A stretch of 64,000 nucleotides of DNA from Elsinoe ampelina (taxonomy: Eukaryota), in contig ML992501.1 of NCBI GenBank assembly GCA_010093995.1, forward strand, positions 2,235,320 through 2,299,319, in the 5' to 3' direction. The notes beneath the pieces were generated by a model. The model was not told where the DNA came from, did not search any database, and saw only the letters and a program-made list of their open reading frames with translations. This document shows positions 1 to 58,928 of the stretch, piece by piece. Numbering within the stretch: position 1 is the stretch's first letter; each line of letters starts with the position of its first letter. Position numbers and translations under genes: made by a program.

Positions 1-736
1 ATCTTAGCCCAATCCGCCAATTGAGACCCGCAATGCGGAGTGGCCATGAAAATTATGCCCCTTGTCGCCTCAACGATGCTTTTGAGATGCGGCTCGGCGC
101 TGTTCTTCGAGTACAGAAGCATCTGGATGACATGTCAGCTGGAGATCGGTGAATCATAGTTGCATGGCATACGTCCTCTACTACCAGTCCACCAAGACTA
201 TGAGCAATGAAGAACAAAGGTCGATCGGCCTGTGTTTTGTTGTAAGTATCGGACGATTCTTGTGCGACTTCAGAGTCGCCTCACCTCGCCTTCCGAGTCT
301 CGCTCATGAGCAAGGCTCGTAAGGAACGTTTGTGCATGGTCGCCTATCCTGCTTTGCGACACTGTGGACCACATGTGGCCAACGTCTGCATCGTAGCCGT
401 AAGTGAAAATGCGGGCATTTGGAAAATCACGTGGCAGCAGTTGCTCCGGCCAGAAACAAGATGTTGACCGATGAGTCCAAGTCGTCTCGCGATCACCGGT
501 GAGCCCATGGACCAACACTATGCTGATCTTGTCAATCATCGGAATATATCACATATCGACTCTGGAATGTCTTACTCTACTGCTCGGTTCTTGTTCGCTG
601 GCTCGCTGCACTGGAACATACCAAGCTCACCTCGCGGTCTGGCGGGAAGCTCCACTTCAGAACCACTTCCATCTTTCTCCGCATTTCGGCTCAGCTTCTT
701 CGGCTTGTCTTTCTTTTTGTCGTCTTTGAACGGCAT
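1..736 (-). CDS. SesB-like / PGAP1-DUF676-type alpha/beta hydrolase (lipase-like); 3' part runs off the window
   Basis: Spliced model from ATG at 736 with three GT-AG introns (~525-575, ~232-284, ~123-173): MPFKDDKK...NRAV-D-IVLVHGLTGDRETTW...FWPEQLLPRDFPNARIFTYGYDA...RPLFFIAHSLGGLVVED...TRGIIFMATPHCGS. The VHGL, TYGYDA, AHSLGG (nucleophile elbow) and TPHxGS motifs are typical of fungal SesB-like hydrolase domains. Confidence 0.85.
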
Positions 737-1533
737 CTTGACGTGCAGTGCGGGGTCACCTCCAACCGACTGTTAACAGTGTAAGAGGAAGATATATTCG
801 AGCTTGCGAGTTGACCGACTGAGCCCGTGTCTGCAATTTGAAACTGATGTAGAGGGCGCAGGGATAGTGCGTATCTATTCTGAGCACCTAGGGATACTCG
901 AGTGACCTTTTCAACAAGGATAGCAGGCTATGCAGACTACTGCAAGACCCATACAGACGGCCACATGCAGGCGTGTTTGCTCCCACGCAGCTCGCATTTC
1001 TTCCGCGGACCCCCAGCTTCTCATTGGGCAGTAGAACTTTGCCTTCTTTTCGGACGACATCAGCTGTGCTGAACTATTGAAGCCACATCGGTTGATGCGG
1101 CAGCCTCACTTTCAACAGCGGCTTGTCGCGAGCTGCGCTCGATAGTGCACACCATCTTCTGGGTAGTGCCGTTTCATGCCTGCAGGGAAGACTTTGGCTG
1201 GGACCTCAGCCCAAGCGCGCGGACCAGGTTACAGCGATTTGAAATGACGCTCGGCGAGGTTACCTGGATTCAGCCAATGATTGCGAGACCGACAATGCAC
1301 GAAGTTATGGCTGCAGGATTCACAGGTCTTCAGCCCATAAGCAGACCTCAGCCGGGGTCATGGAAAGGCACAGTCGTACGTTGCGCTGAAGGTCCATGGT
1401 GAGAAGGACCGACGCCAATATGTCTTAAAAGTGTCCTTGCATGTCCCGCCCAGGAGGAAGCGAATCAGTCATTCATGAAGCTCGCTGAAAGGATACCGGA
1501 CGATAACACAGACATACAAATGCTGGCCCAGTA

Positions 1534-4500
1534 ATGGAGAATCTCCGGGACAAGAAGAACTTCATTGTCGGCGGCCTCAGCAATGTAGGTCAGGCCTTCC
1601 AGGGGAACAGCATTGGCGTATTCCAGCAAACCGGTCAGTCTTTCGACTCGCTGTTGGCTTCCTCATCACTGACCATATTCAAGTCACTGCTGATCATGTT
1701 AATGAGAAGTTAGAGCAGTGCGTCGCTGCTCTATTCTCCACCGATCCCAGAAACACACGCAACACTCTGATAAGATCACATTATCAGTTCACCCACGAGA
1801 CCTGCCAGTGGATACTGCACAATGATGTCTTTCAGCGATGGTTCCAGGGCGAGCCACAGGAATCGCCACTCATTTGGATTTGTGACAAGCCAGGGCAGGG
1901 GAAGACAGCAATGGCGATTTACATTAGCAAACACCTCGAAGAAGTCTACAACGGCGATGACAACACCTGGGTTCTCTACTACTTCTGCGACGCGAATGAC
2001 GAACGGCGCAACAATGCCGTGTCAATCCTGCAGGGTCTCATGTACCTACTCTGCAAGAGAAGTCAAGGGCTAGCGTCAATTCTGTACGATGAATACAAAA
2101 TCCAGCGAGATCAACTTTTCCGCGAGCAATCCATGGAGACCCTCTGGGATGTTTTCAAGAACATGCTACGGGCTTGTGACGCGGAAAAGATATACTGCGT
2201 CATCGATGGCGTCGATCAGTGTAAAGAAGATACACTGAGACCTTTCCTGAACATGCTCAGCGAGTACTTTTCGTCGACCTCGTCAGAGTCAACCGTTCCG
2301 CCACCAAAACCCCTCGAGTCTAGAATTGCGGGCAGGGTCGGACCAGCTGTACGGCTCCTCGTTTCCAGCCGGCAAAGTCCGAGATGCATTGAGGAGGAGC
2401 TCGGTAAATACCCCAGGCTCGAGTTGCAGAGAGAGGTCGTCGACATGGGACGATTCATCGAGGCCAGCGTCGACAAAATATCAGCAGAACGCGAAGTGAG
2501 TGGCAAAGCCGACACTGAGACAAACGAGATCATCAGACAAACGCTTGCTGCTGGTGCCGAGCAGGGATACGTCTGGGTCAGCCTTGTGGCCGAGAAATTG
2601 TCCGGTATGAAGCAAAGTCAGGTTAGACGGGGCGCGGCAAAAATACCTCGCAGCGTTGACGAGATGTATTTGCAGACCTTACACGAAATCCCGTCACGAC
2701 AACGATCCGCTGCAGCTGCTCTGCTCATGTGGGCTGCCTTGTCGGAGAAGTCGCTCACGGTCTTAGAGTTGACCAAAGCCGTCAAGTACACCACGGGCAA
2801 GCCCTGGACGGTGAAGGACACCAGACGAATCTTGGACACCTCGAGCAGTGTAGTACGCCAGCATGCTAAGTACGTCAACTTATCCCACGCTTCCGTACTG
2901 GACTTTCTACGTGGCAAGGAATCGATACTGAGATTCGACAAGGACCTCCAAAATTTCATCATTGAAGAAAAAGAGGCACATGCACGTATGACAAATGCAT
3001 GCATCGCATATCTCCAGGCTAGTGGGAATCTGAAGAAAAGCAGGAGGGTGAAGATCAAGGGCATCGAGACACTGAGCAAGGAGGATAAAGCGTTCCTGCT
3101 CAAACACCCCTTCCTCGAGTACGCCATTGTGCAGTGGCCTTGGCATGCTAAGAAGGCTAGCATCGAGGGTACTCGCTACGATGTTCCCTTCTTTGAAGAA
3201 GATTCGATAAGGCGCCGTCTTTGGTGGGAGAGTTACTGGATTTCCTCACGGAGCTGGTGGTTTGCGTGGAAGTTCACCACTCCGGGTGACTTCTCACTCT
3301 TACATGTCGCCGCATTCTTCAACATCATTCCTCTGGCTCGACACATTGAGCGGAAAGGCCTCTTACGATCGCTCATCAATGCGGAAGATCATCAAGGTCT
3401 TCAACCCTTGAATTGGGCAACGGAAAATTGCCAGACCGAGATGGTGGAGTGGTTACTACAGCGTGGCGCTTACGATGAGGAAGCTTTACGACAAGCAGCT
3501 AGAACAGGCGACATCTCCATCATCAAAATGCTACTGCAGAATAGGCAAATCGCAGAGCATAACAAAGCTGGCAAGGTGTCATCCAGCTCGCCATCATTTA
3601 GCCCGAACTTGTTCAACTCTTTCAGGCGGGCGACACTAACGACCATCTCGGACTTGGCCAAGAAGTATGAAAGCCATGAAGACGAGACTCCCTCTGCATT
3701 ATCACCCCAGATCAGAGGCTATGGCGAGACCAAGTCAGAATCACCCCTGCATATCGCCGCGACTTATGGACACCGCGAAGCCATCGAGGTGTTCCTCACA
3801 AATGGAGAAGATGTCCACAAGACCACTGATGGAGGCTGGACAGCTCTACACAATGCTGCATGGTTTGGTAGAATCCCTGTCATTCACCGGCTCGTCTCCG
3901 CCAAGGCAGATCTCATGGCCCCGACAAACGAGGGCTTGACCCCCCTCCACTGTGCAGTCAAAAACCAAAAGCTTGAAAGCGTACAAGCTCTACTCGCATA
4001 CAAGCAGAAGGTTGACATTGAAGCCAAAGACAAGTACAGAAACCGACCTCTCCATCTCGCATGCAAAGTCGGCAACCTGCCGATCATCAAGCTGTTCCTG
4101 GACCACAAAGCAGATATAGAAGCGAAGATGCCGCCCGGCTGGACACCCTTGCTCTGGGCTTGTAGTGCAGGACAGCGCACGGTTGCAGAACTGCTACTCG
4201 AGCGTGGAGCCGACGCCAATGCTAAATGGATTCAGCTGACAAGTGACTCGAGGAGGATTGAGGTCGGTGCGGTCCAACTGGCCAGAACATATCGCCATGA
4301 GGATCTGGTCAGAGTCTTACAAGGCTTCAATGCTGCTGAGACACAGGCGGTGGACAACGAGGAAGTGCAGCAGATTGTAGCTGAGGAGACAGTCATTGAA
4401 TCGTACGAGGTCCCTCGGATCGAGGATCTCGCTACCGGCCCTGCAGTAGCACTGCCTGCGGATGATACAGGCGCAGACGAGGCCGAGATGGATGAGGAGG

Positions 4501-5357
4501 ATGCTGACGACGACACGAATAGCTCGGAGGACGACGGGATCGACGCTAACCCAGGAGAGACTGCTATCACATCACTGGATCACAATTCTGATGCGTCCGG
4601 GCAAAATGAGCCTACGCCCATTCACGGTCTTGGGATCTTGGAAAGCGATGAGCAGACCTTGAATTTCGCGGGGAAGGAACAACGGCAGAGTTCAAGTCAC
4701 ATTGCAGCCTCAACATCGATTTCATTACCGCACCTGGGTGACATTCCTCTTCAACCCGAAACGCCCCCGAAAACGGATGGCACGCCCTCTTTCAATCAAG
4801 CAGGCCTCAGTATCCCTAGGCGGCCTGTCTCTGGCGCGCCTACACCACCGTATCCATCCTCGAATCAGCTATCCACCACAACACCTCCTAGAGACATTAC
4901 TGAAACCCTCTCGAAGGCACTACAGCAGCACGACAGTCCACTCCCAGAAGGACCACGCGACAGTCCCATGAGTGGCGCCACCTCGACACCGTCACCACCG
5001 ATGGACCAACACAGATCGTCCAAACCAGACCAAAGCCCTTTGGCCGGCTTCACAAGCATCAAATCCAAATTCAGCCGGCGCGAAGCCGGCAACATCTTCA
5101 ACAAGAGATCGAACTCCGAGACCACCAACGACACGGCTGACCGATGTCCCATACCGGCCACCGTCCACGAGGTCCCACAGCTCGGCCCAAGTGCCTCGAG
5201 CAGTCCGACGCCTGCGGGTGAAGAAGACAAGACGACCACGACGGTCAGGAAGCCGCTGTTGTCCAGCGCTTTCAGCGATACTGCTGTGACGCTTACCAAG
5301 GGACTCAAGATGAAGTCCAGGCTGTTAGGGCGGAAGACCTCGGAGGGAGCAGGATGA
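1534..5357 (+). CDS. Fungal NLR (STAND) protein: short N-terminal motif, NACHT, helical region, ankyrin repeats, long acidic/Pro-Ser-rich tail (~1257 aa spliced)
   Basis: Exon 1 1534-1633, intron 1634-1683 (GTCAGT...CTGAC...AAG), exon 2 1684-5357. Pre-NACHT LFSTDP...ETCQWILHNDVFQRW, Walker A LIWICDKPGQGKT, VLYYFC, Walker B IYCVIDGVDQC, LLVSSR, HASVLDFL, PFLEYAIVQWPWHA. Ankyrin repeats SPLHIAA, TALHNAA, TPLHCAV, RPLHLAC, TPLLWAC. The ORF-track start at 1911 misses the P-loop. Confidence 0.9.
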
Positions 5358-5853
5358 GGAAGGCGCGATTGGATTACCGTGATGAGGAAGGCGTGATGGG
5401 GAAGGCGTAACGAGCAGGGTATGGTGCGATCTTTTTGCTGTCTGTTTTGGCATTTCCTGGTCTTGATTCTGCTGTGTGAGATGACAACTGGCTGGGTATG
5501 AGGTGTATACTGGAAACTGCAGAACAGAAAACTTCGCTGATTAGTAGGGAGATGGTGTTCAGGAGGAGATAAAAAAAAATTCGCTGGGTACTTCGCCATC
5601 AGCATGCTTTCGAAAAGACAGTCATTCTTCCACAGTCCGACCTCAGATATCGCATCTGAGCACATATCCATGCCGAGGTCAGATGAAGGCGGATCTGGCT
5701 CCGGTGACCACCAGGTTTGTTACTCGAGATGTGCTAACTATCATACCAACTGCGTCGATCGATTGCACCTCACTCGACGGAACTCGCTACATGACGTATA
5801 CCTGCCTGCCTCCCCACGCGCTCAGTCATACCACATTCCTCACTTAACCCCTC

Positions 5854-8800
5854 TCACTGCCCCCAAACCGACGACTTGACACTCTGAAACGTCGACGACA
5901 CCGCCCCCGTCACATCCGACCCCGCACCACCATCCTCCCGTTTCCTCTGCCCAGAAAGCTTCTCTGTCAGCGCGTCTTTCCACGAATGCGGCGGAAGCAA
6001 ATTGCTCACCTCCATTTGAATGCCCCTATGCAGATGCACCAACCAATCGACGTAGCTCTGCGCCTCGCCGTTCCTGTCCTCGTACAACAAGCGGGCGAAC
6101 TCGAATTCCGCGCCGTCGAGACCCTGTCGTGCTAGCTGGATGGTCATGCCTTTGCTGCCGCGCGTCATTTCGAGGTATTGGATGATGTTTCGCACTTGTG
6201 CGTTGAGGTGGGTTTCGAGGATCGGCAGGGCAGACATGAATGGGTCGAGGTCTTGGAGGCCGTTGATGCCGGGGCCGAAGAGGTCTTCGAGGAGGTTGGG
6301 GGAGACTTGGGCGTGTAGCCAGATGAGGCATGTTTGGCCGTCGTCGACGATGTAGACGCCTCCGTCCTCGACTTGGGAGAAGCTAGCGCGAAGGGCGTGA
6401 GGCATTGTCAGGTGGCCATTTTCATTTGCAAAGCCGTCGGCTGGGTCGAGGTTGTGGATGCCGATGATGCGAGGATAGAGGTAGAGAGAAAGCTCTGTGA
6501 GACCCATCGCTCGAATCATCCGTACGTCGTGCACTCGTCGATCTGATGGCTCGCGACCGCCCTTGAAAGCCCGTGACTTGACAAGGCCGAGGACGTACAT
6601 AGAGAGCTCCTTGAGGTTCTCAGGCAAGACCAATTGTCCGGGAGGATGTGAGCCAGAAAAGTTTCTGCGATAGCCTGCGAGGATGTCGATTGTCTTTTCT
6701 GTGAGTGTGTTCCGGATATCTTTGACCGGCTTCTCAGTGACACGAGCTGCTGCTTCCTTCGCAATGATGCCAACCACAGCATCCTGGTCTACGAGCTTCA
6801 TGGCTTCAACAGCACCTTCACTGACCGAGGCGACGAAGTTGCTGCACCGTACCCGTCTCTCGCCACTCGCTGTAGTGTATAGCAGAGCCGACTGGAAGTG
6901 AGCGTCCAACTTAGGATCGAGCTTACCGTCATAAGTGAACACCACGCCGAGTGCCTTGTCCTGGTCAATGACGCCAATCTCGAGATCAGCACCAAAGGTG
7001 TGCTGCACAAAATTGCCATGATACGCAGATATTTGCAGCCCGTTCGAGCATCGGACTTTCATGAGAGCTTGGAAACCGGTATCTCGTGTCACAGTGTGCT
7101 TTATCTCCTTTGCCAGCTTCAACAGATCCCGTGGGGCGTGGAAATTGGGATAGTAGTAGATCTCACCACCAGTGGTCCCTGAGACGTGACCAATTGTGCC
7201 GAGGTCTAGGTAACCGCCACTTGGAGCAGCCATGAAGAAGTCCACGCCGATACCCGCTTCGACCATTTTCGAGGCGCACTTTTTCCATTCCGGATACTCC
7301 GTTGTGAACAGCTTCTTCTCCAGTTCAGTGTCCGAAGTCTGCTGAAGATCTCGCATGTAAAGTCGTCCTGGACCTTGCGTGGGCAGAGCAGATACCGAGC
7401 AGATCACCTTGCCACCTGTCGGAGTCAATGCCGCAAGGGCCGCCTCCAGAGTGGGTAGAAGTGAAGGATCTGGGCGTGGTATCCGAGAAAACATCTGGGG
7501 AATCTGTCGAAGTAGGTTCGTGATGATGGTTTTCGAGGGTGCCGGGTCGACAAAGAGGCCCTCGCTAAGGGGAACGAATGGCTCGGCAAGATCAGAAATG
7601 ATGATCATCTGCGCTTGTTCCAGCCGCGGGCTGATGTTGTAGAACTGTATCTCACGGTCGAAAGTTACGATTCCCACTTTGGCGCCTGGTGGTAGTCTTA
7701 CTGATCCACCTTCTGCCACCTCCTCTCCCTCTTCGGGAAATAGCGAACTGAGAATGCCCTCGCAGACGCCATGTAAGAAGCCTTTGTTTACAGCTTCGGC
7801 ACTGACATCAATCAAGAACAGCCAATTGATTGGCACTGGCTCCTTCGACCAGTACTCGCGGGGCACAGTGAATTCCACAGTACCTAGCATGAGTTCTTGC
7901 CTCTCTGCACGATCGACGCGTATGCCGCTGGGATCTGTCGGTGCAAAGTAATTAGATGGCACATCGTTCGGGTGCGTGCACATGTTGCAGACAAACTTGT
8001 TGCCACCAGCCTTGAAGATCATGAAGGGATTGATGTAAGCTCGACACCGCCGACACCTCGGTGGGCCTTCGTTGCCGAAATCGATGACTGGGATCGCTTG
8101 CTCGCCCTCTTGCAAGGGTGCCAAAGGTTGCAATATGAGTCCGAGAGGAAGTCCTGTTGATGCTAAAGCGTCTTGAGACGCCGGTATGTTGTTCATGGTG
8201 AGACGTGCATATTTGGGTGAGCAGTTCCCTTGGTCGAATGCGACGAATGGCACAGCAGCTGGCGGCGGAAGATGTTGTTCCATGGTAGGGTAGATGTGTT
8301 CCAGGTAGTATTTCGCAGGGAAGTCCCGTGATCGTGGTATGCTCGGTATTTGGTCTGGGTCCACTTTCCCCTGAGCTGACGCTGACCCGGGCGCTCCTAC
8401 GACTGCAGCACCCGGTGTGACTCCGGGCTGCACCGGAGCTGGGGCCGCAGCAGGTTGCTGTTGAAACTGAGTCGCCGGTGGAGCATACTGACTGCCTGCC
8501 GATGGCAATCGCTGTGACATGTACGGCCCTCCTGCACCTGGGCCAGCTATGTCCCCGTAGGGCGAAGCCACAGGCGGTGCGCCATTCGTTGCTTGTGGGC
8601 TCGGTGCTGGCTGCTCAAGCTGATGGTATGCATGTCTGTCCTTCTTTTTCCGCGGCGCCATTACTCCGGCCCCTCCACTGCCATCCAGACTCATCTGTCC
8701 CATCTGACCGCTCAACTGTCCCATACCTCCTTGCGCCTGCTGGCCGTACTGTTGCTGTTGCATGTTGGAATCGGAGCTTGGTTGTGGAGGGAAGTAACTG

Positions 8801-9009
8801 CCTGGTTCGCCAGGAGCCGTCAATGGCGCGGATGTAGGACCTAGGCCCGGAGGATGTTGTGAGTAAGACGAGCCTGTTTGTTGGTAGCCGCCCGGGCTGG
8901 GAGCTACAGGATATCGATTTTGCGGCTGTTTCTTTCTGGGTGCGAATTCGTCTCTTGGTGTGCTTGTCAGGCTGGATATCAGCGGAGAGCCCAGGGCGAA
9001 TTCTCCCAT
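5854..9009 (-). CDS. SEC24: COPII coat subunit Sec24 family (Sfb3/Lst1, SEC24C/D-like)
   Basis: Zn finger PPRCRRCRAYINPF...FVCNMC, trunk WLFLIDVS, beta-sandwich MKVRCSNGL...GERRVR, helical GQLVLPENLK, gelsolin-like region, Pro/Gln-rich N-terminus. Likely in-frame 51-nt intron at 5959-6009. True 5' end uncertain. Confidence 0.93.
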   Translation of the reverse strand: MGEFALGSPLISSLTSTPRDEFAPRKKQPQNRYPVAPSPGGYQQTGSSYSQHPPGLGPTSAPLTAPGEPGSYFPPQPSSDSNMQQQQYGQQAQGGMGQLSGQMGQMSLDGSGGAGVMAPRKKKDRHAYHQLEQPAPSPQATNGAPPVASPYGDIAGPGAGGPYMSQRLPSAGSQYAPPATQFQQQPAAAPAPVQPGVTPGAAVVGAPGSASAQGKVDPDQIPSIPRSRDFPAKYYLEHIYPTMEQHLPPPAAVPFVAFDQGNCSPKYARLTMNNIPASQDALASTGLPLGLILQPLAPLQEGEQAIPVIDFGNEGPPRCRRCRAYINPFMIFKAGGNKFVCNMCTHPNDVPSNYFAPTDPSGIRVDRAERQELMLGTVEFTVPREYWSKEPVPINWLFLIDVSAEAVNKGFLHGVCEGILSSLFPEEGEEVAEGGSVRLPPGAKVGIVTFDREIQFYNISPRLEQAQMIIISDLAEPFVPLSEGLFVDPAPSKTIITNLLRQIPQMFSRIPRPDPSLLPTLEAALAALTPTGGKVICSVSALPTQGPGRLYMRDLQQTSDTELEKKLFTTEYPEWKKCASKMVEAGIGVDFFMAAPSGGYLDLGTIGHVSGTTGGEIYYYPNFHAPRDLLKLAKEIKHTVTRDTGFQALMKVRCSNGLQISAYHGNFVQHTFGADLEIGVIDQDKALGVVFTYDGKLDPKLDAHFQSALLYTTASGERRVRCSNFVASVSEGAVEAMKLVDQDAVVGIIAKEAAARVTEKPVKDIRNTLTEKTIDILAGYRRNFSGSHPPGQLVLPENLKELSMYVLGLVKSRAFKGGREPSDRRVHDVRMIRAMGLTELSLYLYPRIIGIHNLDPADGFANENGHLTMPHALRASFSQVEDGGVYIVDDGQTCLIWLHAQVSPNLLEDLFGPGINGLQDLDPFMSALPILETHLNAQVRNIIQYLEMTRGSKGMTIQLARQGLDGAEFEFARLLYEDRNGEAQSYVDWLVHLHRGIQMEVSNLLPPHSWKDALTEKLSGQRKREDGGAGSDVTGAVSSTFQSVKSSVWGQ

Positions 9010-9584
9010 AATTCAATTGAAAGAGATCGCGATTCAGCTAAGCAATGCTTGAAGCTCTCCGCGGCCCATACATTTTTTGTAACACGTAGTCGAAATGTCC
9101 AAGGAGTGCGGGCAGTCCAATCGATGTCGTCTGGGCGATCGCTATCGTGTAGAGGTGACACTGGCCCCGCGCCGAGAGCGTAAAGAGTCGGAGATGGTGT
9201 GAATTTGATCAAAGGGGAGTGATATGGAGACGTGGAACTTTCATGGTTGCAGGTACCGCCAAGACACAGCAAGCATTCACACGGCTTCCGGAGTCACAAT
9301 GCCCGTTGCATATCAACCTCTATTTTGGGAACAGGGACGCATTATTGCCATCACGTTCTGATCTGTACAATGATGACTTCAATAGGTGCAAAAGCCAGTA
9401 AAGGTGCTCATGTCCGCGCGGCTAACGTGCATTCGCCTTGCGAGATACTATCTGAAACCCAAAGCCTCTATCATCCTCAAAATAGTGACCGAGATGCTGT
9501 CATGAATCGTGATCATTACATCCCCTTTCCCCTCAGTGAATTCATCCCTAATGCTCCAGAACTGTGCGCACCGACCACTCAGAA

Positions 9585-28676: not shown

Positions 28677-29512
28677 CCATCACGAGCGAGCATTGCCTTG
28701 ATGTTTCTTTGAGATTTCTTGTTATCGGGAGGAGTGATTACAGGGCGTGAAAGGGCGTCGACTTGGGAAGTGCGTGTCTCGGATATGCTACTGTGGCGCA
28801 TGCGATGGGAGATCTACGTCCCGTGACCTGCGGCTCTTTGATGCCCGAGGACGTCTCCCAATTGCACGAGAGACCGATCAGTGCGAGGGAGAGGAGTGGT
28901 CTGATCAGAGAACGAGAAGCTGGTCATTGTGGAGCAGATCGGACAAAATGCAGGCACAAGGTGGGATAGACATGCAGTGCACAGCCACCCCTTACCCAGA
29001 GAACCCTGTTCATCGACCAATCATATCGTTGCTCTTAACGAGCGTCCGTGGTGATGCTTCTCTGACCAAAACGCTTTTCACGAGGATACCATCAAGTTTC
29101 AAAAACATGTAACCGAAGCCCACAAACACGACCTGCTTTCTCTTTCACTCTGATCCATCTCCACCTCAAGAACCTCAACCACCTAAGATCCCTGCCATGA
29201 CACTCGTGTATTACGCAACAGAGGACTCGATGACACGCCAGACAGCCCCACTGTCAGCTTGATGCAACCGCAAAGTCGCTCTTCCGAAGTGCTTGCAGCC
29301 CCTCCCAATACCAAGGCACGCCGCCTCGGTCAGTCAGCACCACCGCCCAACGACAATCGTCGCTCAATATCCTTTACTCTCACCACGTTCGCGTGTCTCC
29401 ACTCTCTTTAATCGCGACATTCCGAAGTCCCACAGTCGAGCTCTCCATCCGTCACCGTCATCGCATCACCCCGCTTCTCCGTCACTAAAGCTTGACCGAA
29501 ACACGGCGCAAC

Positions 29513-31448
29513 ATGGACGAGACTGCGCGCCTGCGCAGGAAGGATACCACAAAGGGCCCGCCTTTGCGCATCCTCAGTCTGGATGGCGGTGGAGTGCGCG
29601 GCTACTCCATGCTCATCATTTTGCAAGAGTTGATGCACAGGACATTCGTCGAAACAGAAGGTCGGGCACCAAGAAGACACGAGATCCCTCGACCATGCGA
29701 ACATTTCGACCTGATCGTGGGAACCGGCACAGGAGGACTCATAGCTCTCATGCTGGGCAGACTACGACTGGACATCGACACGTGCAAGGACGTCTACGTG
29801 CGCATGACGAGAAGGGTTTTTGAGACGGACAAGACCTTTGCTGGCATACCTTATAGAGGAACCTTGTTCAAGGCGAGCAAGCTGGAAGAAGCTATTCGGG
29901 AGTGTGTCAGTGGTCACACCGTCGACGGGGAGGAGGGTAACGATTCTGTCGCAACTGCAACTCCCATGTCACCCGACATACCCAGCAGTCGCACTTCTTA
30001 TGCTAGTCCGCAAAGAAGCCCAAGTGTCGCCAGCAGATACAGCCAAGTCGGAATGAGTCCGATCATACCACGAGCCAGTCGATGGGGTAATCCGAACGCT
30101 TTATTGTACGATATGAGGGAGAACAGGACGAAAACAGCCGTGACAGCTGTCTACCGAGGCACACCGAAGGGTGCACCAGCCGCCCTGCTGAGATCTTACG
30201 ACTCTCGAAAGGAGCCGGCCCCCGAATTCAATTGCACAATTTGGCAAGCTGGTCGCGCCACGTCCGCGACAGGACTTGCATTCAAGCCAATACAGATTGG
30301 CCAGTCAGTCTTCATTGATGAAGGAGTTGGCAAGTACAATCCTTCGCCACAAGCCCTCGACGAAGCGATCCTCAACGAATGGCCGGGTCGAGAGGTCGGT
30401 GTGATGGTCAGCATCGGGACTGGTAAGCGACCAGGAGGCACCAATGCTCAACAACACTTGTGGTGGGAGAGCTTTGTCGGTGGCGCTATGGGCGACTTTG
30501 CCGAGGCACGAAGGCGACTCATAACAAAGATCGAAGGCTGCGAGGAAACACACCAGTACATGATGAAGGAGCATCTTTCAAAGCGAGGCGTGAATCCAGA
30601 GAATTACTACCGCCTCAACGTCGAAGTCGGGGTTGGCGAATTCGGAATGAATGGTAAGTTGCGTCTGAAAATGTGCCATCTCGAACCTCACTGACGCTCT
30701 CACAGAATGGAATAGACTGTCGGAAATATCGACAAACACACGCATGTACCTCGCACGAAAAGAGACGACGTCAATGAACATGCAAGCAGCAGCGAAAATG
30801 GCAAAGATCCACTTCGCAAAACGCCGTCACGATAGACATGCATCGACGAACAGCATACAAGGTGGCCAGGAGAGATGGGACCGCCCAGTATCTTCGTCAG
30901 TCATGCCACCACCATCGAATCCGCTGGCTGTTGAGCTACCTGGTGAAGATGTCATACCCGGCGTGCACACAGTCCTAGGACCTCGACAATATGTCCATCG
31001 AGGATCATTAGCGGACGCCAAATACACGGTGGTACCGGAGGAAGACTATTCAGAACCGATAGACTCTCCGCAGCACCACCAGCAAGCTCCGTATGGTCCG
31101 GACTCATATCGACAATCGTGGCGACCGAGTATGGACGGTCCAAGGAGGTCCGACGGATCATCAACGATCACGGCATCGCCGCGGGTCAGTTTTGAAAAGC
31201 CACCATCACCAGCTTCGCAACGGCTTTCACAAGCTTCACCACCAAAGAATTCGCCGCCGCCCATCCCACCCAAGACGCCACTTCCCTACCCTGATACCGA
31301 CCAGCCTCCCCGGACTTTCACGAACATGGGTAATCTAGGACGGTACGGTGCGCCGCTACCATCGGCCAACAACCTCCCGTATCCTGACACGGATGGACCT
31401 CCACCTGTTGTCAACGTCGCGCGGAAACCCGAGTTTGGAGTACGATGA
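29513..31448 (+). CDS. Patatin-like phospholipase with Pro-rich C-terminal tail
   Basis: LRILSLDGGGVRG, HFDLIVGTGTGGLIA, WQAGRATSA, FIDEG, VSIGTG, YYRLNV. Intron about 30654-30705. Confidence 0.9.
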
Positions 31449-56975: not shown

Positions 56976-58928
56976 ATGCCGTCAAACACCAGAAACATAA
57001 AGGGTCCCACGGAAACGGAAGCAGCAACTGCGACGGTAGAGACCACTACTACCTCTAGTTCTGGTGGTGGTCGGAAAGGTCCTATCACGATGGCAGCCGC
57101 GACCGGACTGCAACCTTCTCCCCACGGATCTCCAGATCGCTCTGGCAGGACGTCACCTGGTACAGGCCAATCCCCTGTGAGAGGCGACGTGACATCGCAG
57201 GATTGGAGGAGAGCCCGCTTGTGGATCAAGGATGTGAAGGATCCGTGGGATCCTTGTATCCTCACGCTGGACGGTGGAGGTATTCGAGGTTTCAGCAGTG
57301 CTCTGATATTGAAGAGACTAATGGAGGAGATCTACAAATGGGAGAAGAAGCTTGAAGAGCAGGAAGGCACGCCCACACGCGGCGATCTGACAGAACTCAC
57401 CCACGAGCTGGCAGTACCAGCCTCCGACAGCTTACCAGAAGACGACGAGCTGGTAGTCCCAACCTCTGGCGACTTACTAGAGAACGACGATCTATCAAGC
57501 CGTAGCAAATTGCCAGCCTCAGCGGACGAATTACTACCCTGTCACTACTTCGACTTCATGTATGGCACGAGCACTGGAGGCTTGATAGCAGTCATGCTTG
57601 CTCGTCTGCGCATGAACATCAGCCAATGCCTCGAGCAGTATCGTATAGTCGGAGACGAATTATTCGGTCACAGAAAGAGCATAATACCTTTCATGACTAA
57701 GTACAGATGCGAGCCTTTGGAAAGGGCCGTGAAAGAGCTTGTTGCAAAGAGAGATCTGGGGCACATACACCCGTGGGACGAGGAATTCCGCCGTCGTGCT
57801 AGTGTTCACGATCATGATCACGATTATCTCGACGGCCGGACTCAACTTGCTCCAGACGGTGTCGATGCTCGTGATATGGCTGCCGGTAGCACCGGTGCAA
57901 GCTTCAAAGCTGGTGACCTAGCCCCCGGCAGCCCAAAAGCGAGCTTCGACGCAAGGTCTCAGGTCGACAGCGTCTTCTTGCCGCATCTGACGTCGGAGCC
58001 AGAGCGAATACCGAAGATGACCGACAGCATAATCTCTCGAAGCACAGCTGCCGAATCAGACTCGCCGCGCTGGAATCCAGACGCACCACGCGTATGTCAG
58101 TCATGTTGCTTGACAGCTATTCACAATGGCACGGTCCAGCGAGCACACCTGCTCAGATCTTATCCTCATAGATACACCCGAGATCTGCCCGCGTGGATCA
58201 CTCCATACAATTCTGGAGCTGACAAGCTCGCCATTTGGCAGGTGACTCGAGCGACGAGCGCCGCTCCTTTCTACTTCGAGATGCTGGAAGCCATCGTCGA
58301 GAATGAGAAGAGGGGCCACAAGGACGGTGGCATCAGAGAAAACAACCCCGCTGGTGCTGCGTACAGTGAATTCGTCTCACTATATCCCAAGAAGCAGAAG
58401 CCGGCTCTTATGCTCAGTATTGGTACTGGACGAACAAGCACATCACCTGATGGCTTCATGTCGGCCTTGCCCTGGCCATTCGGTCATGTGACTCTACTAC
58501 GCAAGATGGCCGAGAACATCTCGGTGATCCCACACTTGCTGGTCAAATACACTGAAAGTGAGGCGAAGCACGAGGAGATGGTACGATATGCCCGAGGTGA
58601 GAATACCTGGTACAAACGCTTGAATGTGTCGGAAGGTCTGGAAAATATGCCACTGGATGACTGGACCAAGGGAAAATACGAAGGCAAAGTTGTTCCAGGA
58701 GGTGCCTCGCTCTCCCGTATGCACGAAGCCACTGATCGATATCTATCACGGGACGTCGACGACCAGATCGAGAAGTTCGTCGCGCCCAAAGATATGATTG
58801 AGCAACTCGCGGAAAAGCTTGTAAGAGTCCGTCGAGCACGCGAAAGGCTTGGGGGCGAGAGATGGGAGACATTCATTGGACGAGGCCTTCGGGAGCGCAT
58901 GGTACGCCAAACCATCGAGACAACTTAA
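56976..58928 (+). CDS. Patatin-like (iPLA2-gamma-type) phospholipase
   Basis: ILTLDGGGIRG, FDFMYGTSTGG (catalytic Ser), RATSAAPFYF, KDGG (catalytic Asp), NNP, LSIGTG, YKRLNV. Single exon. Confidence 0.92.
   Translation: MPSNTRNIKGPTETEAATATVETTTTSSSGGGRKGPITMAAATGLQPSPHGSPDRSGRTSPGTGQSPVRGDVTSQDWRRARLWIKDVKDPWDPCILTLDGGGIRGFSSALILKRLMEEIYKWEKKLEEQEGTPTRGDLTELTHELAVPASDSLPEDDELVVPTSGDLLENDDLSSRSKLPASADELLPCHYFDFMYGTSTGGLIAVMLARLRMNISQCLEQYRIVGDELFGHRKSIIPFMTKYRCEPLERAVKELVAKRDLGHIHPWDEEFRRRASVHDHDHDYLDGRTQLAPDGVDARDMAAGSTGASFKAGDLAPGSPKASFDARSQVDSVFLPHLTSEPERIPKMTDSIISRSTAAESDSPRWNPDAPRVCQSCCLTAIHNGTVQRAHLLRSYPHRYTRDLPAWITPYNSGADKLAIWQVTRATSAAPFYFEMLEAIVENEKRGHKDGGIRENNPAGAAYSEFVSLYPKKQKPALMLSIGTGRTSTSPDGFMSALPWPFGHVTLLRKMAENISVIPHLLVKYTESEAKHEEMVRYARGENTWYKRLNVSEGLENMPLDDWTKGKYEGKVVPGGASLSRMHEATDRYLSRDVDDQIEKFVAPKDMIEQLAEKLVRVRRARERLGGERWETFIGRGLRERMVRQTIETT
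57405..57488 (+). repeat. Imperfect 42-bp tandem duplication inside the patatin CDS
   Basis: ELAVPASDSLPEDD / ELVVPTSGDLLEND, also alignable at DNA level. Confidence 0.75.

Follow-up and report, generated by a model that had tools for sequence, protein, structure and literature searches.

Fungal nucleotide-binding oligomerization domain-like receptors (NLRs) can be linked to their effectors by short amyloid signalling motifs. A 2025 methods paper puts the number of fungal families of such motifs at four or five, namely HET-s-related, sigma, PP, and PUASM 1-2. The PP motif is given as FxGx(x)NxGLQLxGxNxGxL or NxGxQxGxN, with the core G-hydrophobic-Q-hydrophobic-G (PMC3321046, PMC9815663, PMC5485727, bioRxiv 10.1101/2020.07.22.215483), and it is the route by which an NLR turns on two proteins, one HeLo-like and the other the lipase SBP (PMC5485727, bioRxiv 10.1101/2020.07.22.215483). 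The sigma motif spans about 40 residues with three GxGxQFNxx / GGTQNINT units, and the HET-s-related motif (HRAM) is a 21-residue unit, present twice in the effector, that has N1, G10, G17, and N18, is hydrophobic at positions 3/6/14/16, and is positively charged at 13 (PMC3321046). PUASM, FxGxGxQxxGxGxF, is exclusive to PNP_UDP effectors (PMC9815663). SesB homologues with PP or sigma extensions adjoin STAND/NLR genes, loci without sesA have been described, and the extensions are more alike within a cluster than among orthologues (PMC3321046). Lipase-plus-NLR clusters are already described for PP and sigma, and this kind of module is known. Here we describe a divergent pair of genes, one for a SesB-like hydrolase and one for an NLR, at positions 1 to 5357 of a 64,000-nucleotide stretch of Elsinoe ampelina contig ML992501.1, hereafter the window.

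We consider the pair to be probably (about 0.72 by our own estimate) one of the two-gene NLR/effector modules that fungi use for amyloid signalling, in which the hydrolase is the sole identified effector. We favor an amyloid-templating module because the architecture, placement, composition, and co-variation of its parts match validated fungal systems: the NLR lacks an effector domain and carries a short extension, its neighbor carries a homologous C-terminal extension, and both adjacency and within-cluster likeness are seen in four pairs. The central observation is a match between the two termini. By BLASTP, NLR residues 9-26 (NFIVGGLSNVGQAFQGNS) aligned with residues 340-357 of the hydrolase P0003 (NFMIGSQSNIGQVFQGNN) with 11 of 18 positions identical and 15 of 18 positive (E 6e-7, as a single comparison). 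The NLR N-terminus reads MENLRDKKNFIVGGLSNVGQAFQGNSIGVFQQT and the hydrolase tail contains ASNFMIGSQSNIGQVFQGNNWSGNF. A preliminary description, made from the sequence alone, had placed the two start codons at 736 (minus) and 1534 (plus) across a spacer of about 800 bp, had put the hydrolase C-terminus outside the window, and had predicted that it would end in a G/N/Q-rich motif alignable with NLR residues 8-33. Both genes were found where it put them, the spacer measures 797 bp, hydrolase residues 193-376 lie left of position 1, and the tail carries the predicted motif. Its proposal of a signalling module gains support from this shared motif and from the conserved adjacency described below; the amyloid and activation step stands by analogy.

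The motif has the consensus N-F/Y-x-x-G-x-x-x-N-V/I-G-Q-V-F-Q-G-S/N-N-x-G-T-F/Y and is rich in G (17%), N (16%), and F, S, and Q (10% each), with nearly no charge or proline; the hydrolase has a single copy. A hidden Markov model (HMM) built from nine instances recovered only those nine from 337 proteins, the next best match having an E value of 0.32. The same model, which was built before we turned to metagenome contigs, was run against all six frames of 79 loci (1.07 Mb) kept from a scan of such contigs with the NLR alignment. It matched at the two expected places of one locus, L001, which holds the NLR orthologue P0017, and otherwise gave one weak match elsewhere (E 0.7). No further copy was seen in the six-frame translation of the 64-kb window, where 1558..1626 was the only match, or in 22.8 kb of L001. 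A complex prediction that combined two copies of NLR 1-33 with two of hydrolase 325-376 scored 0.02, which is no evidence either way.

The pair and its motif are also kept in relatives. Of the 8000 candidates scored in the NLR search, 77 proteins came in at E <= 0.001, including 11 full-length orthologues with 38-48% identity (P0013-P0023). Three of these 11 models have the motif at their start, namely P0013 (Elsinoe australis), P0015, and P0019 (Elasticomyces elasticus). The two genes are adjacent in E. australis (B9Z65_5959/5960, PSK36144.1/PSK36145.1), in a second E. australis assembly (TKX20440.1/TKX20439.1), and in Elasticomyces elasticus (LTR17_008049/008050, KAK5735516.1/KAK5735517.1), as judged from consecutive locus tags or accessions, and both lie on L001. 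The named motif carriers all belong to the Dothideomycetidae, in the orders Myriangiales and Mycosphaerellales. On L001, a minus-strand hydrolase gene ends in the motif (GNYYQGSMHNVGQVFQNSTFGTFQMGRS, HMM E 1.3e-8) and a plus-strand, ATG-initiated exon carries it (MTNYFTGKITDVQAAFQNSPIQTFIYS, HMM E 0.024) about 130 nt upstream of the P0017 frame; the two genes stand head to head, about 780 bp apart. Sec24 and RabGAP, which neighbor the pair in the window, are absent from the L001 flanks, where the genes differ, and the two spacers share nothing beyond 8-10-base words. The P0017 model itself starts at MYKHQ, within the pre-NACHT region (L001 9868-10110), and the upstream motif exon is absent from it.

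As expected of clusters whose extensions evolve together, each of the four NLR motifs was closest to the hydrolase motif of its own neighbor, a small sample in which the true pairing gave the highest summed identity of all 24 permutations. The conserved adjacency and the motif co-variation that one would look for on the preliminary description are therefore both observed. Mean identities, from an alignment of 11 instances, were as follows.

Within pair: 0.45 (0.48, 0.56, 0.38, 0.38)
Cross-species NLR-hydrolase: 0.34
NLR-NLR: 0.29
Hydrolase-hydrolase: 0.47

Individual changes are also held in common by partners: a one-residue insertion is common to the Elsinoe partners, and both L001 partners have FQN where the others have FQG. 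In the L001 motif pair, 6 of the 10 identical residues are encoded by different codons, so that the likeness is held at the protein level rather than by recent DNA copying.

The NLR gene has the following parts.

1534..1633, plus strand: exon 1, residues 1-33 plus 1 base; spliced contig 1466-1632 joined to 1683-2304
1558..1626, plus strand: codons of the N-terminal amyloid-like motif, NLR residues 9-31 (NFIVGGLSNVGQAFQGNSIGVFQ), from BLASTP against the hydrolase tail; motif HMM E 5.9e-14
1634..1683, plus strand: intron of 50 nt (GTCAGT..CTGAC..AAG), with a GT..AG joint in an X1 contig
1684..5357, plus strand: exon 2 to the stop codon; open frame 1686-5354 is P0002, and the whole protein has 1257 residues
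1797..2405, plus strand: NACHT-type nucleotide-binding domain, P0002 residues 38-240; Pfam NPHP3_N 7.7e-33; Walker A GQGKT at 1893-1907
3747..4226, plus strand: ankyrin repeats, P0002 residues 688-847; Pfam Ank_2 5.2e-40, Ank 3.2e-38
4383..5354, plus strand: S/P/T/D/E-rich C-terminal tail after the ankyrin repeats, NLR residues ~935-1257; no Pfam match

The product is a NACHT NLR, with a P-loop NTPase of NACHT type followed by ankyrin repeats. NPHP3_N scored 114 bits against a cut-off of 24.8, and the Pfam NACHT model scored 22.3 bits, under its cut-off of 26.7. Residues G72, K73, and T74 of the Walker A motif (P0002 numbering) are invariant or nearly so in 12 orthologues, and the DGxD box is invariant. 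The preliminary description had counted about 40 residues before the pre-NACHT helix and concluded that no folded effector domain was present; we count 34 residues before the pre-NACHT segment, and no Pfam family was found for them even at E up to 10. It had also raised the matter of further upstream exons that might encode such a domain. None was seen in the X1 contig, which follows the genome from 1466 on, and an in-frame stop lies within that contig 10 codons 5' of ATG 1534; the NLR therefore begins MENLRD in that transcript. The transcript contigs come from runs not recorded as RNA, and removed introns are present nonetheless: one X1 contig has the NLR intron spliced out, and the intron of the neighboring Sec24 gene (5959-6009) is removed in four of four runs. 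Run X1 is possibly also the sample behind the assembly. A short upstream open reading frame (ATG 1520, four codons, then a stop) lies inside the transcribed 5' leader and overlaps the NLR ATG out of frame. At the other end, a long tail beyond the sensor repeats is unusual for an NLR; that of about 320 residues seen here keeps small islands in the 12-orthologue consensus, LxGLGIxEE and GRFxxxRxxSWK, the latter repeated in some orthologues.

The hydrolase gene runs from the window edge to the spacer.

576..736, minus strand: exon 1, residues 1-53 plus 2 bases, ATG 736; tblastn of P0003 identical over residues 1-53
523..575, minus strand: predicted intron 1 (53 nt, GTAAGA..CAG), implied by the P0003 gene model and the frame
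285..522, minus strand: exon 2, residues 54-133; carries the HGLTG oxyanion-region motif, kept in homologues
230..284, minus strand: intron 2 (55 nt); joint 228>284 (cut +1) in contigs of runs X1 and X2 (two studies)
173..229, minus strand: exon 3, encoding AHSLGG including the nucleophile Ser144
123..172, minus strand: intron 3 (50 nt); joint 122>173 in a contig of run X2
1..122, minus strand: exon 4, cut at the window edge after residue 192
737..1533, no strand: divergent intergenic spacer of 797 bp, the presumed shared promoter region, from the sequence

The deposited gene product of the window is P0003 (376 residues), which was found by a search with exon 2 among longer proteins (the best of 10 at E <= 0.001, from 40 candidates) and has zero mismatches to the window exons over residues 1-192. 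The remaining 184 residues (193-376), with the C-terminal motif at 339-365, are encoded left of the window. Support for the exon 1 peptide comes from its likeness to the N-termini of the orthologues P0004-P0006 only. In the spacer, X1 contigs cover 919-1376 and run from 1466 onward; the unspliced mid-spacer contig 919-1376 could be a long 5' untranslated region, a divergent non-coding transcript, or DNA or pre-mRNA carry-over.

P0003 is a SesB-like alpha/beta-hydrolase by its DUF676 match, its nucleophile elbow AHSLGG, and its modelled fold. DUF676 scored 31.5 bits against a cut-off of 20.3, Abhydrolase_6 and PGAP1 matched more weakly, and the homologue P0118 is labelled sesB-related by its source. 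An AlphaFold2 model built with 81 homologues (mean predicted local distance difference test score, pLDDT, of 82) has an alpha/beta-hydrolase core at 39-324 and a tail at 325-376 with pLDDT of about 50 and no secondary structure. Foldseek with this model returned lipases, thioesterases, monoacylglycerol lipase, and phospholipase PlaB, with 6wpy_A at the top (1.4e-9). Across 268 aligned homologue rows, the catalytic positions are kept: Ser144 in 244/254, His278 in 228/229, Glu247 in 255/257, and Asp98 in 243/259, and H143 of AHSLGG is kept in 252/254; H59, G60, and G63 are kept across about 250 homologues. Because P0003 has Ser144, His278, Glu247, and Asp98, it looks like a catalytically competent serine hydrolase. 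The preliminary description had allowed that the hydrolase gene might itself encode a full NLR, making a head-to-head NLR pair. This alternative is ruled out: the product is a stand-alone hydrolase of 376 residues, with one alpha/beta-hydrolase domain and a disordered tail.

By analogy with the described systems, we infer amyloid formation, templating of the hydrolase by the NLR, and a hydrolase output. The ankyrin repeats would sense a ligand and bring about NACHT oligomerization, which would gather the N-terminal segments and let them fold cooperatively into a cross-beta nucleus. This nucleus would template the hydrolase tail into the same fold, and the polymerised hydrolase, active or relocalised, may then degrade lipids, leading to regulated cell death or a related defence response.

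Several points weigh against this interpretation. Amyloid formation, seeding, and cell death are put forward here on the likeness to NWD2/HET-S, the sigma locus, and the PP cluster; no SesB-like hydrolase has an established mechanism of activation by polymerisation, and PMC9815663 calls the link of the SesB-like domain to cell death "more indirect". At the hydrolase gene, an X1 contig (467-666) runs unspliced through predicted intron 1, the transcript contigs hold no splice joint between exons 1 and 2, and the C-terminus is known from the deposited gene model, corroborated by orthologues only. The co-variation concerns four pairs, and as the best of 24 permutations its p value is at best about 0.04; within-pair identity is just 0.38 in Elasticomyces and L001. 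Eight of the 11 NLR orthologue models (P0014, P0016-P0018, P0020-P0023) start at or after the pre-NACHT helix, beyond the motif. For one of these eight, P0017, the L001 DNA shows a motif exon missed upstream, and no convincing GT-AG intron was found there to join that exon to the NACHT frame. Since eight of 11 models lack the motif exon, censuses of predicted proteins will undercount the motif.

The identity of the motif is a separate matter. It is apparently PP-like and uncatalogued: it may form a family of its own, or it may derive from PP by a rearrangement of the core. We put forward tentatively, at a little under even odds, that it represents an uncatalogued family of fungal NLR-associated amyloid signalling motifs (core G-Q-V/A-F-Q-G-S/N-N-x-G-T-F/Y), carried by an orthologous lipase/NACHT-ankyrin pair that, despite changed flanks, has kept its head-to-head arrangement in at least two orders of Dothideomycetes. 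The best-surviving alternative is that the module is as described and the motif a divergent member of the PP (RHIM-like) family, with nothing new except the species, which we regard as unlikely. Because no real PP instances were found in the supplements, the comparison with PP uses published consensus strings only; canonical PP core strings had 0 occurrences in those supplement files of PMC9815663 that the search covered. Against the PP consensus (PMC3321046), F/Y-x-G, N-x-G, and G-x-N-x-G-x-hydrophobic are kept, with glycine spacings of 5, 5, and 4, and by eye the PP-like spacing F/Y-x-G ... N-x-G ... G-x-N-x-G-x-aromatic is retained. PP also sits near positions 5-9 of NLR N-termini, and its effectors, too, are of both kinds, pore-forming and enzymatic, with a SesB-like lipase among the latter. 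The defining PP core is, however, absent: the motif centers on G-Q-V/A-F-Q-G, with two hydrophobic residues between two glutamines, and the PP patterns N.G.Q.G.N, G.Q.G.N, and N.G[LIVMFA]Q[LIVMFA].G.N matched 0 of the 9 protein-borne instances and gave 0 terminal matches in 337 proteins. Pfam returned no model for the motif peptides even at E up to 10, a scan with no positive control for such short amyloid models. The 2022 census of NLR N-termini used 16 motif profiles, NLR07 and NLR39 being those for PP, and in its S1 Table the N-terminus of the Elsinoe orthologue PSK36145.1 is unannotated, not-clustered, and noasm (PMC9815663); PSK36144, TKX20439, and TKX20440 did not occur in the supplement files searched.

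The other catalogued families fit less well. The sigma patterns G.G.QF and G[GST]TQN are absent from the instances and gave 0 terminal matches in 337 proteins. Set against the published HRAM consensus, the N..N spacing is similar, the glycines are shifted, position 13 has no charge, and the hydrolase has one unit. The PUASM pattern is absent from the motif alignment, and the effector here is DUF676, not PNP_UDP. A Pfam scan of 81 SesB-like homologues listed 25 families, with no amyloid-motif family among them, and a full-text literature search with strings from the motif, which reached neither motif-logo text nor the profile files of PMC9815663, returned no paper.

It is also conceivable, and in our view quite improbable, that what the two proteins share is a short linear motif of non-amyloid nature, such as a peptide for docking or dimerisation or a localisation signal present in both, which couples them with no prion-like templating. 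The low-confidence, structureless AlphaFold tail is compatible with any disordered linear motif, and the amyloid character of the segment is here a matter of analogy. Its placement at the extreme N-terminus of the NLR and the extreme C-terminus of the effector nevertheless agrees with that in the HET-s, PP, sigma, and PUASM systems, which have been validated, as do its length of 21-25 residues, its G/N/Q/aromatic make-up without charge or proline, and its within-cluster co-variation. Finally, the segments are short and compositionally biased, which makes BLAST statistics fragile, but a chance likeness of low-complexity termini on genes that are mere neighbors deserves almost no credence: the specificity of the HMM, the L001 scan, and the co-variation contradict it, the motif stands at the same two termini in four independent pairs (two Dothideomycetes orders plus a metagenome contig) with partner-specific changes in common, and the pair persists while the flanking genes differ.

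Other SesB-like hydrolases have other tails. The P0003 homologue search found 215 proteins at E <= 0.001, and among the 120 listed, a C-terminal motif of the present type occurs in P0003-P0006 and P0139 only, many others having different G/N/Q-rich ends. The tails of P0093, P0096, P0102, P0116, and P0125 contain another conserved segment, G-N-V-I/V-T-G-x-V/F/I-N-N-Y/H-x-G-G/S-K...G-N/S-N/T-F-Q-G-P/N/S-V-x-F, to which the N-terminus of P0024, a Lomentospora NACHT-ankyrin NLR, is similar. Several further tail types were seen, among them GGK-x-hydrophobic-QGxN... and GGP-I/V-F-x-G-D/N.... SesB-like effectors thus seem to carry many motif variants beyond the reach of simple PP and sigma patterns.

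The rest of the window is that of a fungal genome, with GT..AG introns of 50-55 nt interrupting open frames and Sec24, RabGAP, Naf1, and Alg9 as neighbors. Single transcript contigs (such as X1 2841-5958 joined to 6010-9195) bridge the NLR and the convergent Sec24 gene across 5357-5854, which suggests overlapping or closely abutting 3' ends. Two open reading frames have a Patatin-like phospholipase domain (29492-30694, plus strand, 2.7e-15; 56976-58928, plus strand, 1.7e-16). Patatin is another fungal NLR effector domain; beside these two frames we saw neither a NACHT/NB-ARC domain nor a shared motif.

If the motif is indeed a family of its own, such a stable pair with the lipase as its single effector would point to a conserved defence function rather than fast-turnover allorecognition, and it would offer a clean system for asking what a polymerised SesB-like hydrolase does. 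Whether as an additional family or as PP with its core rearranged, the motif would extend the range of sequences known for signalling amyloids, help to train detectors that now miss it, and test how far the RHIM/PP core can change with templating kept. With one NLR and one lipase, the locus is among the simplest settings for learning how SesB-like effectors act.

Among the described systems, the PP cluster (PNT1/HELLP/SBP in Chaetomium globosum; PNT1/HELLP in Podospora anserina) likewise has an effector-less NLR with a motif of about 20 residues at its extreme N-terminus and an adjacent SesB-like lipase with a C-terminal motif, in single, G/N/Q-rich copies with similar G and N spacing. It differs in that its NLR is NB-ARC-TPR, whereas the one described here is NACHT-ankyrin, in its core (G-hydrophobic-Q-hydrophobic-G as against G-Q-V/A-F-Q-G), and in its HeLo-like partner, no counterpart of which was seen here, as neither the 64-kb window nor the 22.8 kb of L001 holds an additional copy of the motif. 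The sigma locus of Nectria haematococca (sesA, sesB, het-eN) is close in pairing a SesB hydrolase with a NACHT-ankyrin NLR through a common terminal extension, in having the NLR motif exon before a short 5' intron, where annotation often misses it, and in that sesB loci without sesA exist and extensions co-evolve within clusters. Unlike sigma, with its roughly 40 residues and three repeats, the motif here consists of one unit, about 23 residues long, in which the sigma submotifs are absent.

NWD2/HET-S of Podospora anserina also consists of divergent adjacent genes, with asparagines about 17 residues apart and one motif copy (NWD2 residues 3-23) on an NLR without an effector domain. Its effector, HET-S, is a HeLo pore-former with two copies, whereas the effector here is a hydrolase with one, and relative to the published consensus the glycines are offset by one, the positive charge at 13 is missing, and the hydrophobic residues at 6 and 16 are lost. 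The same hydrolase family is found in all-in-one SesB-like NLRs, in which the SesB-like domain is N-terminal to NACHT/NB-ARC and repeats: many of the best 150 representative P0003 matches are 700-2000 residues long with the hydrolase match near the N-terminus, and many SESB-LIKE NACHT ANK/WD proteins appear in the table of PMC9815663. In the pair described here, by contrast, hydrolase and NLR are separate genes, tied by a short shared motif only.

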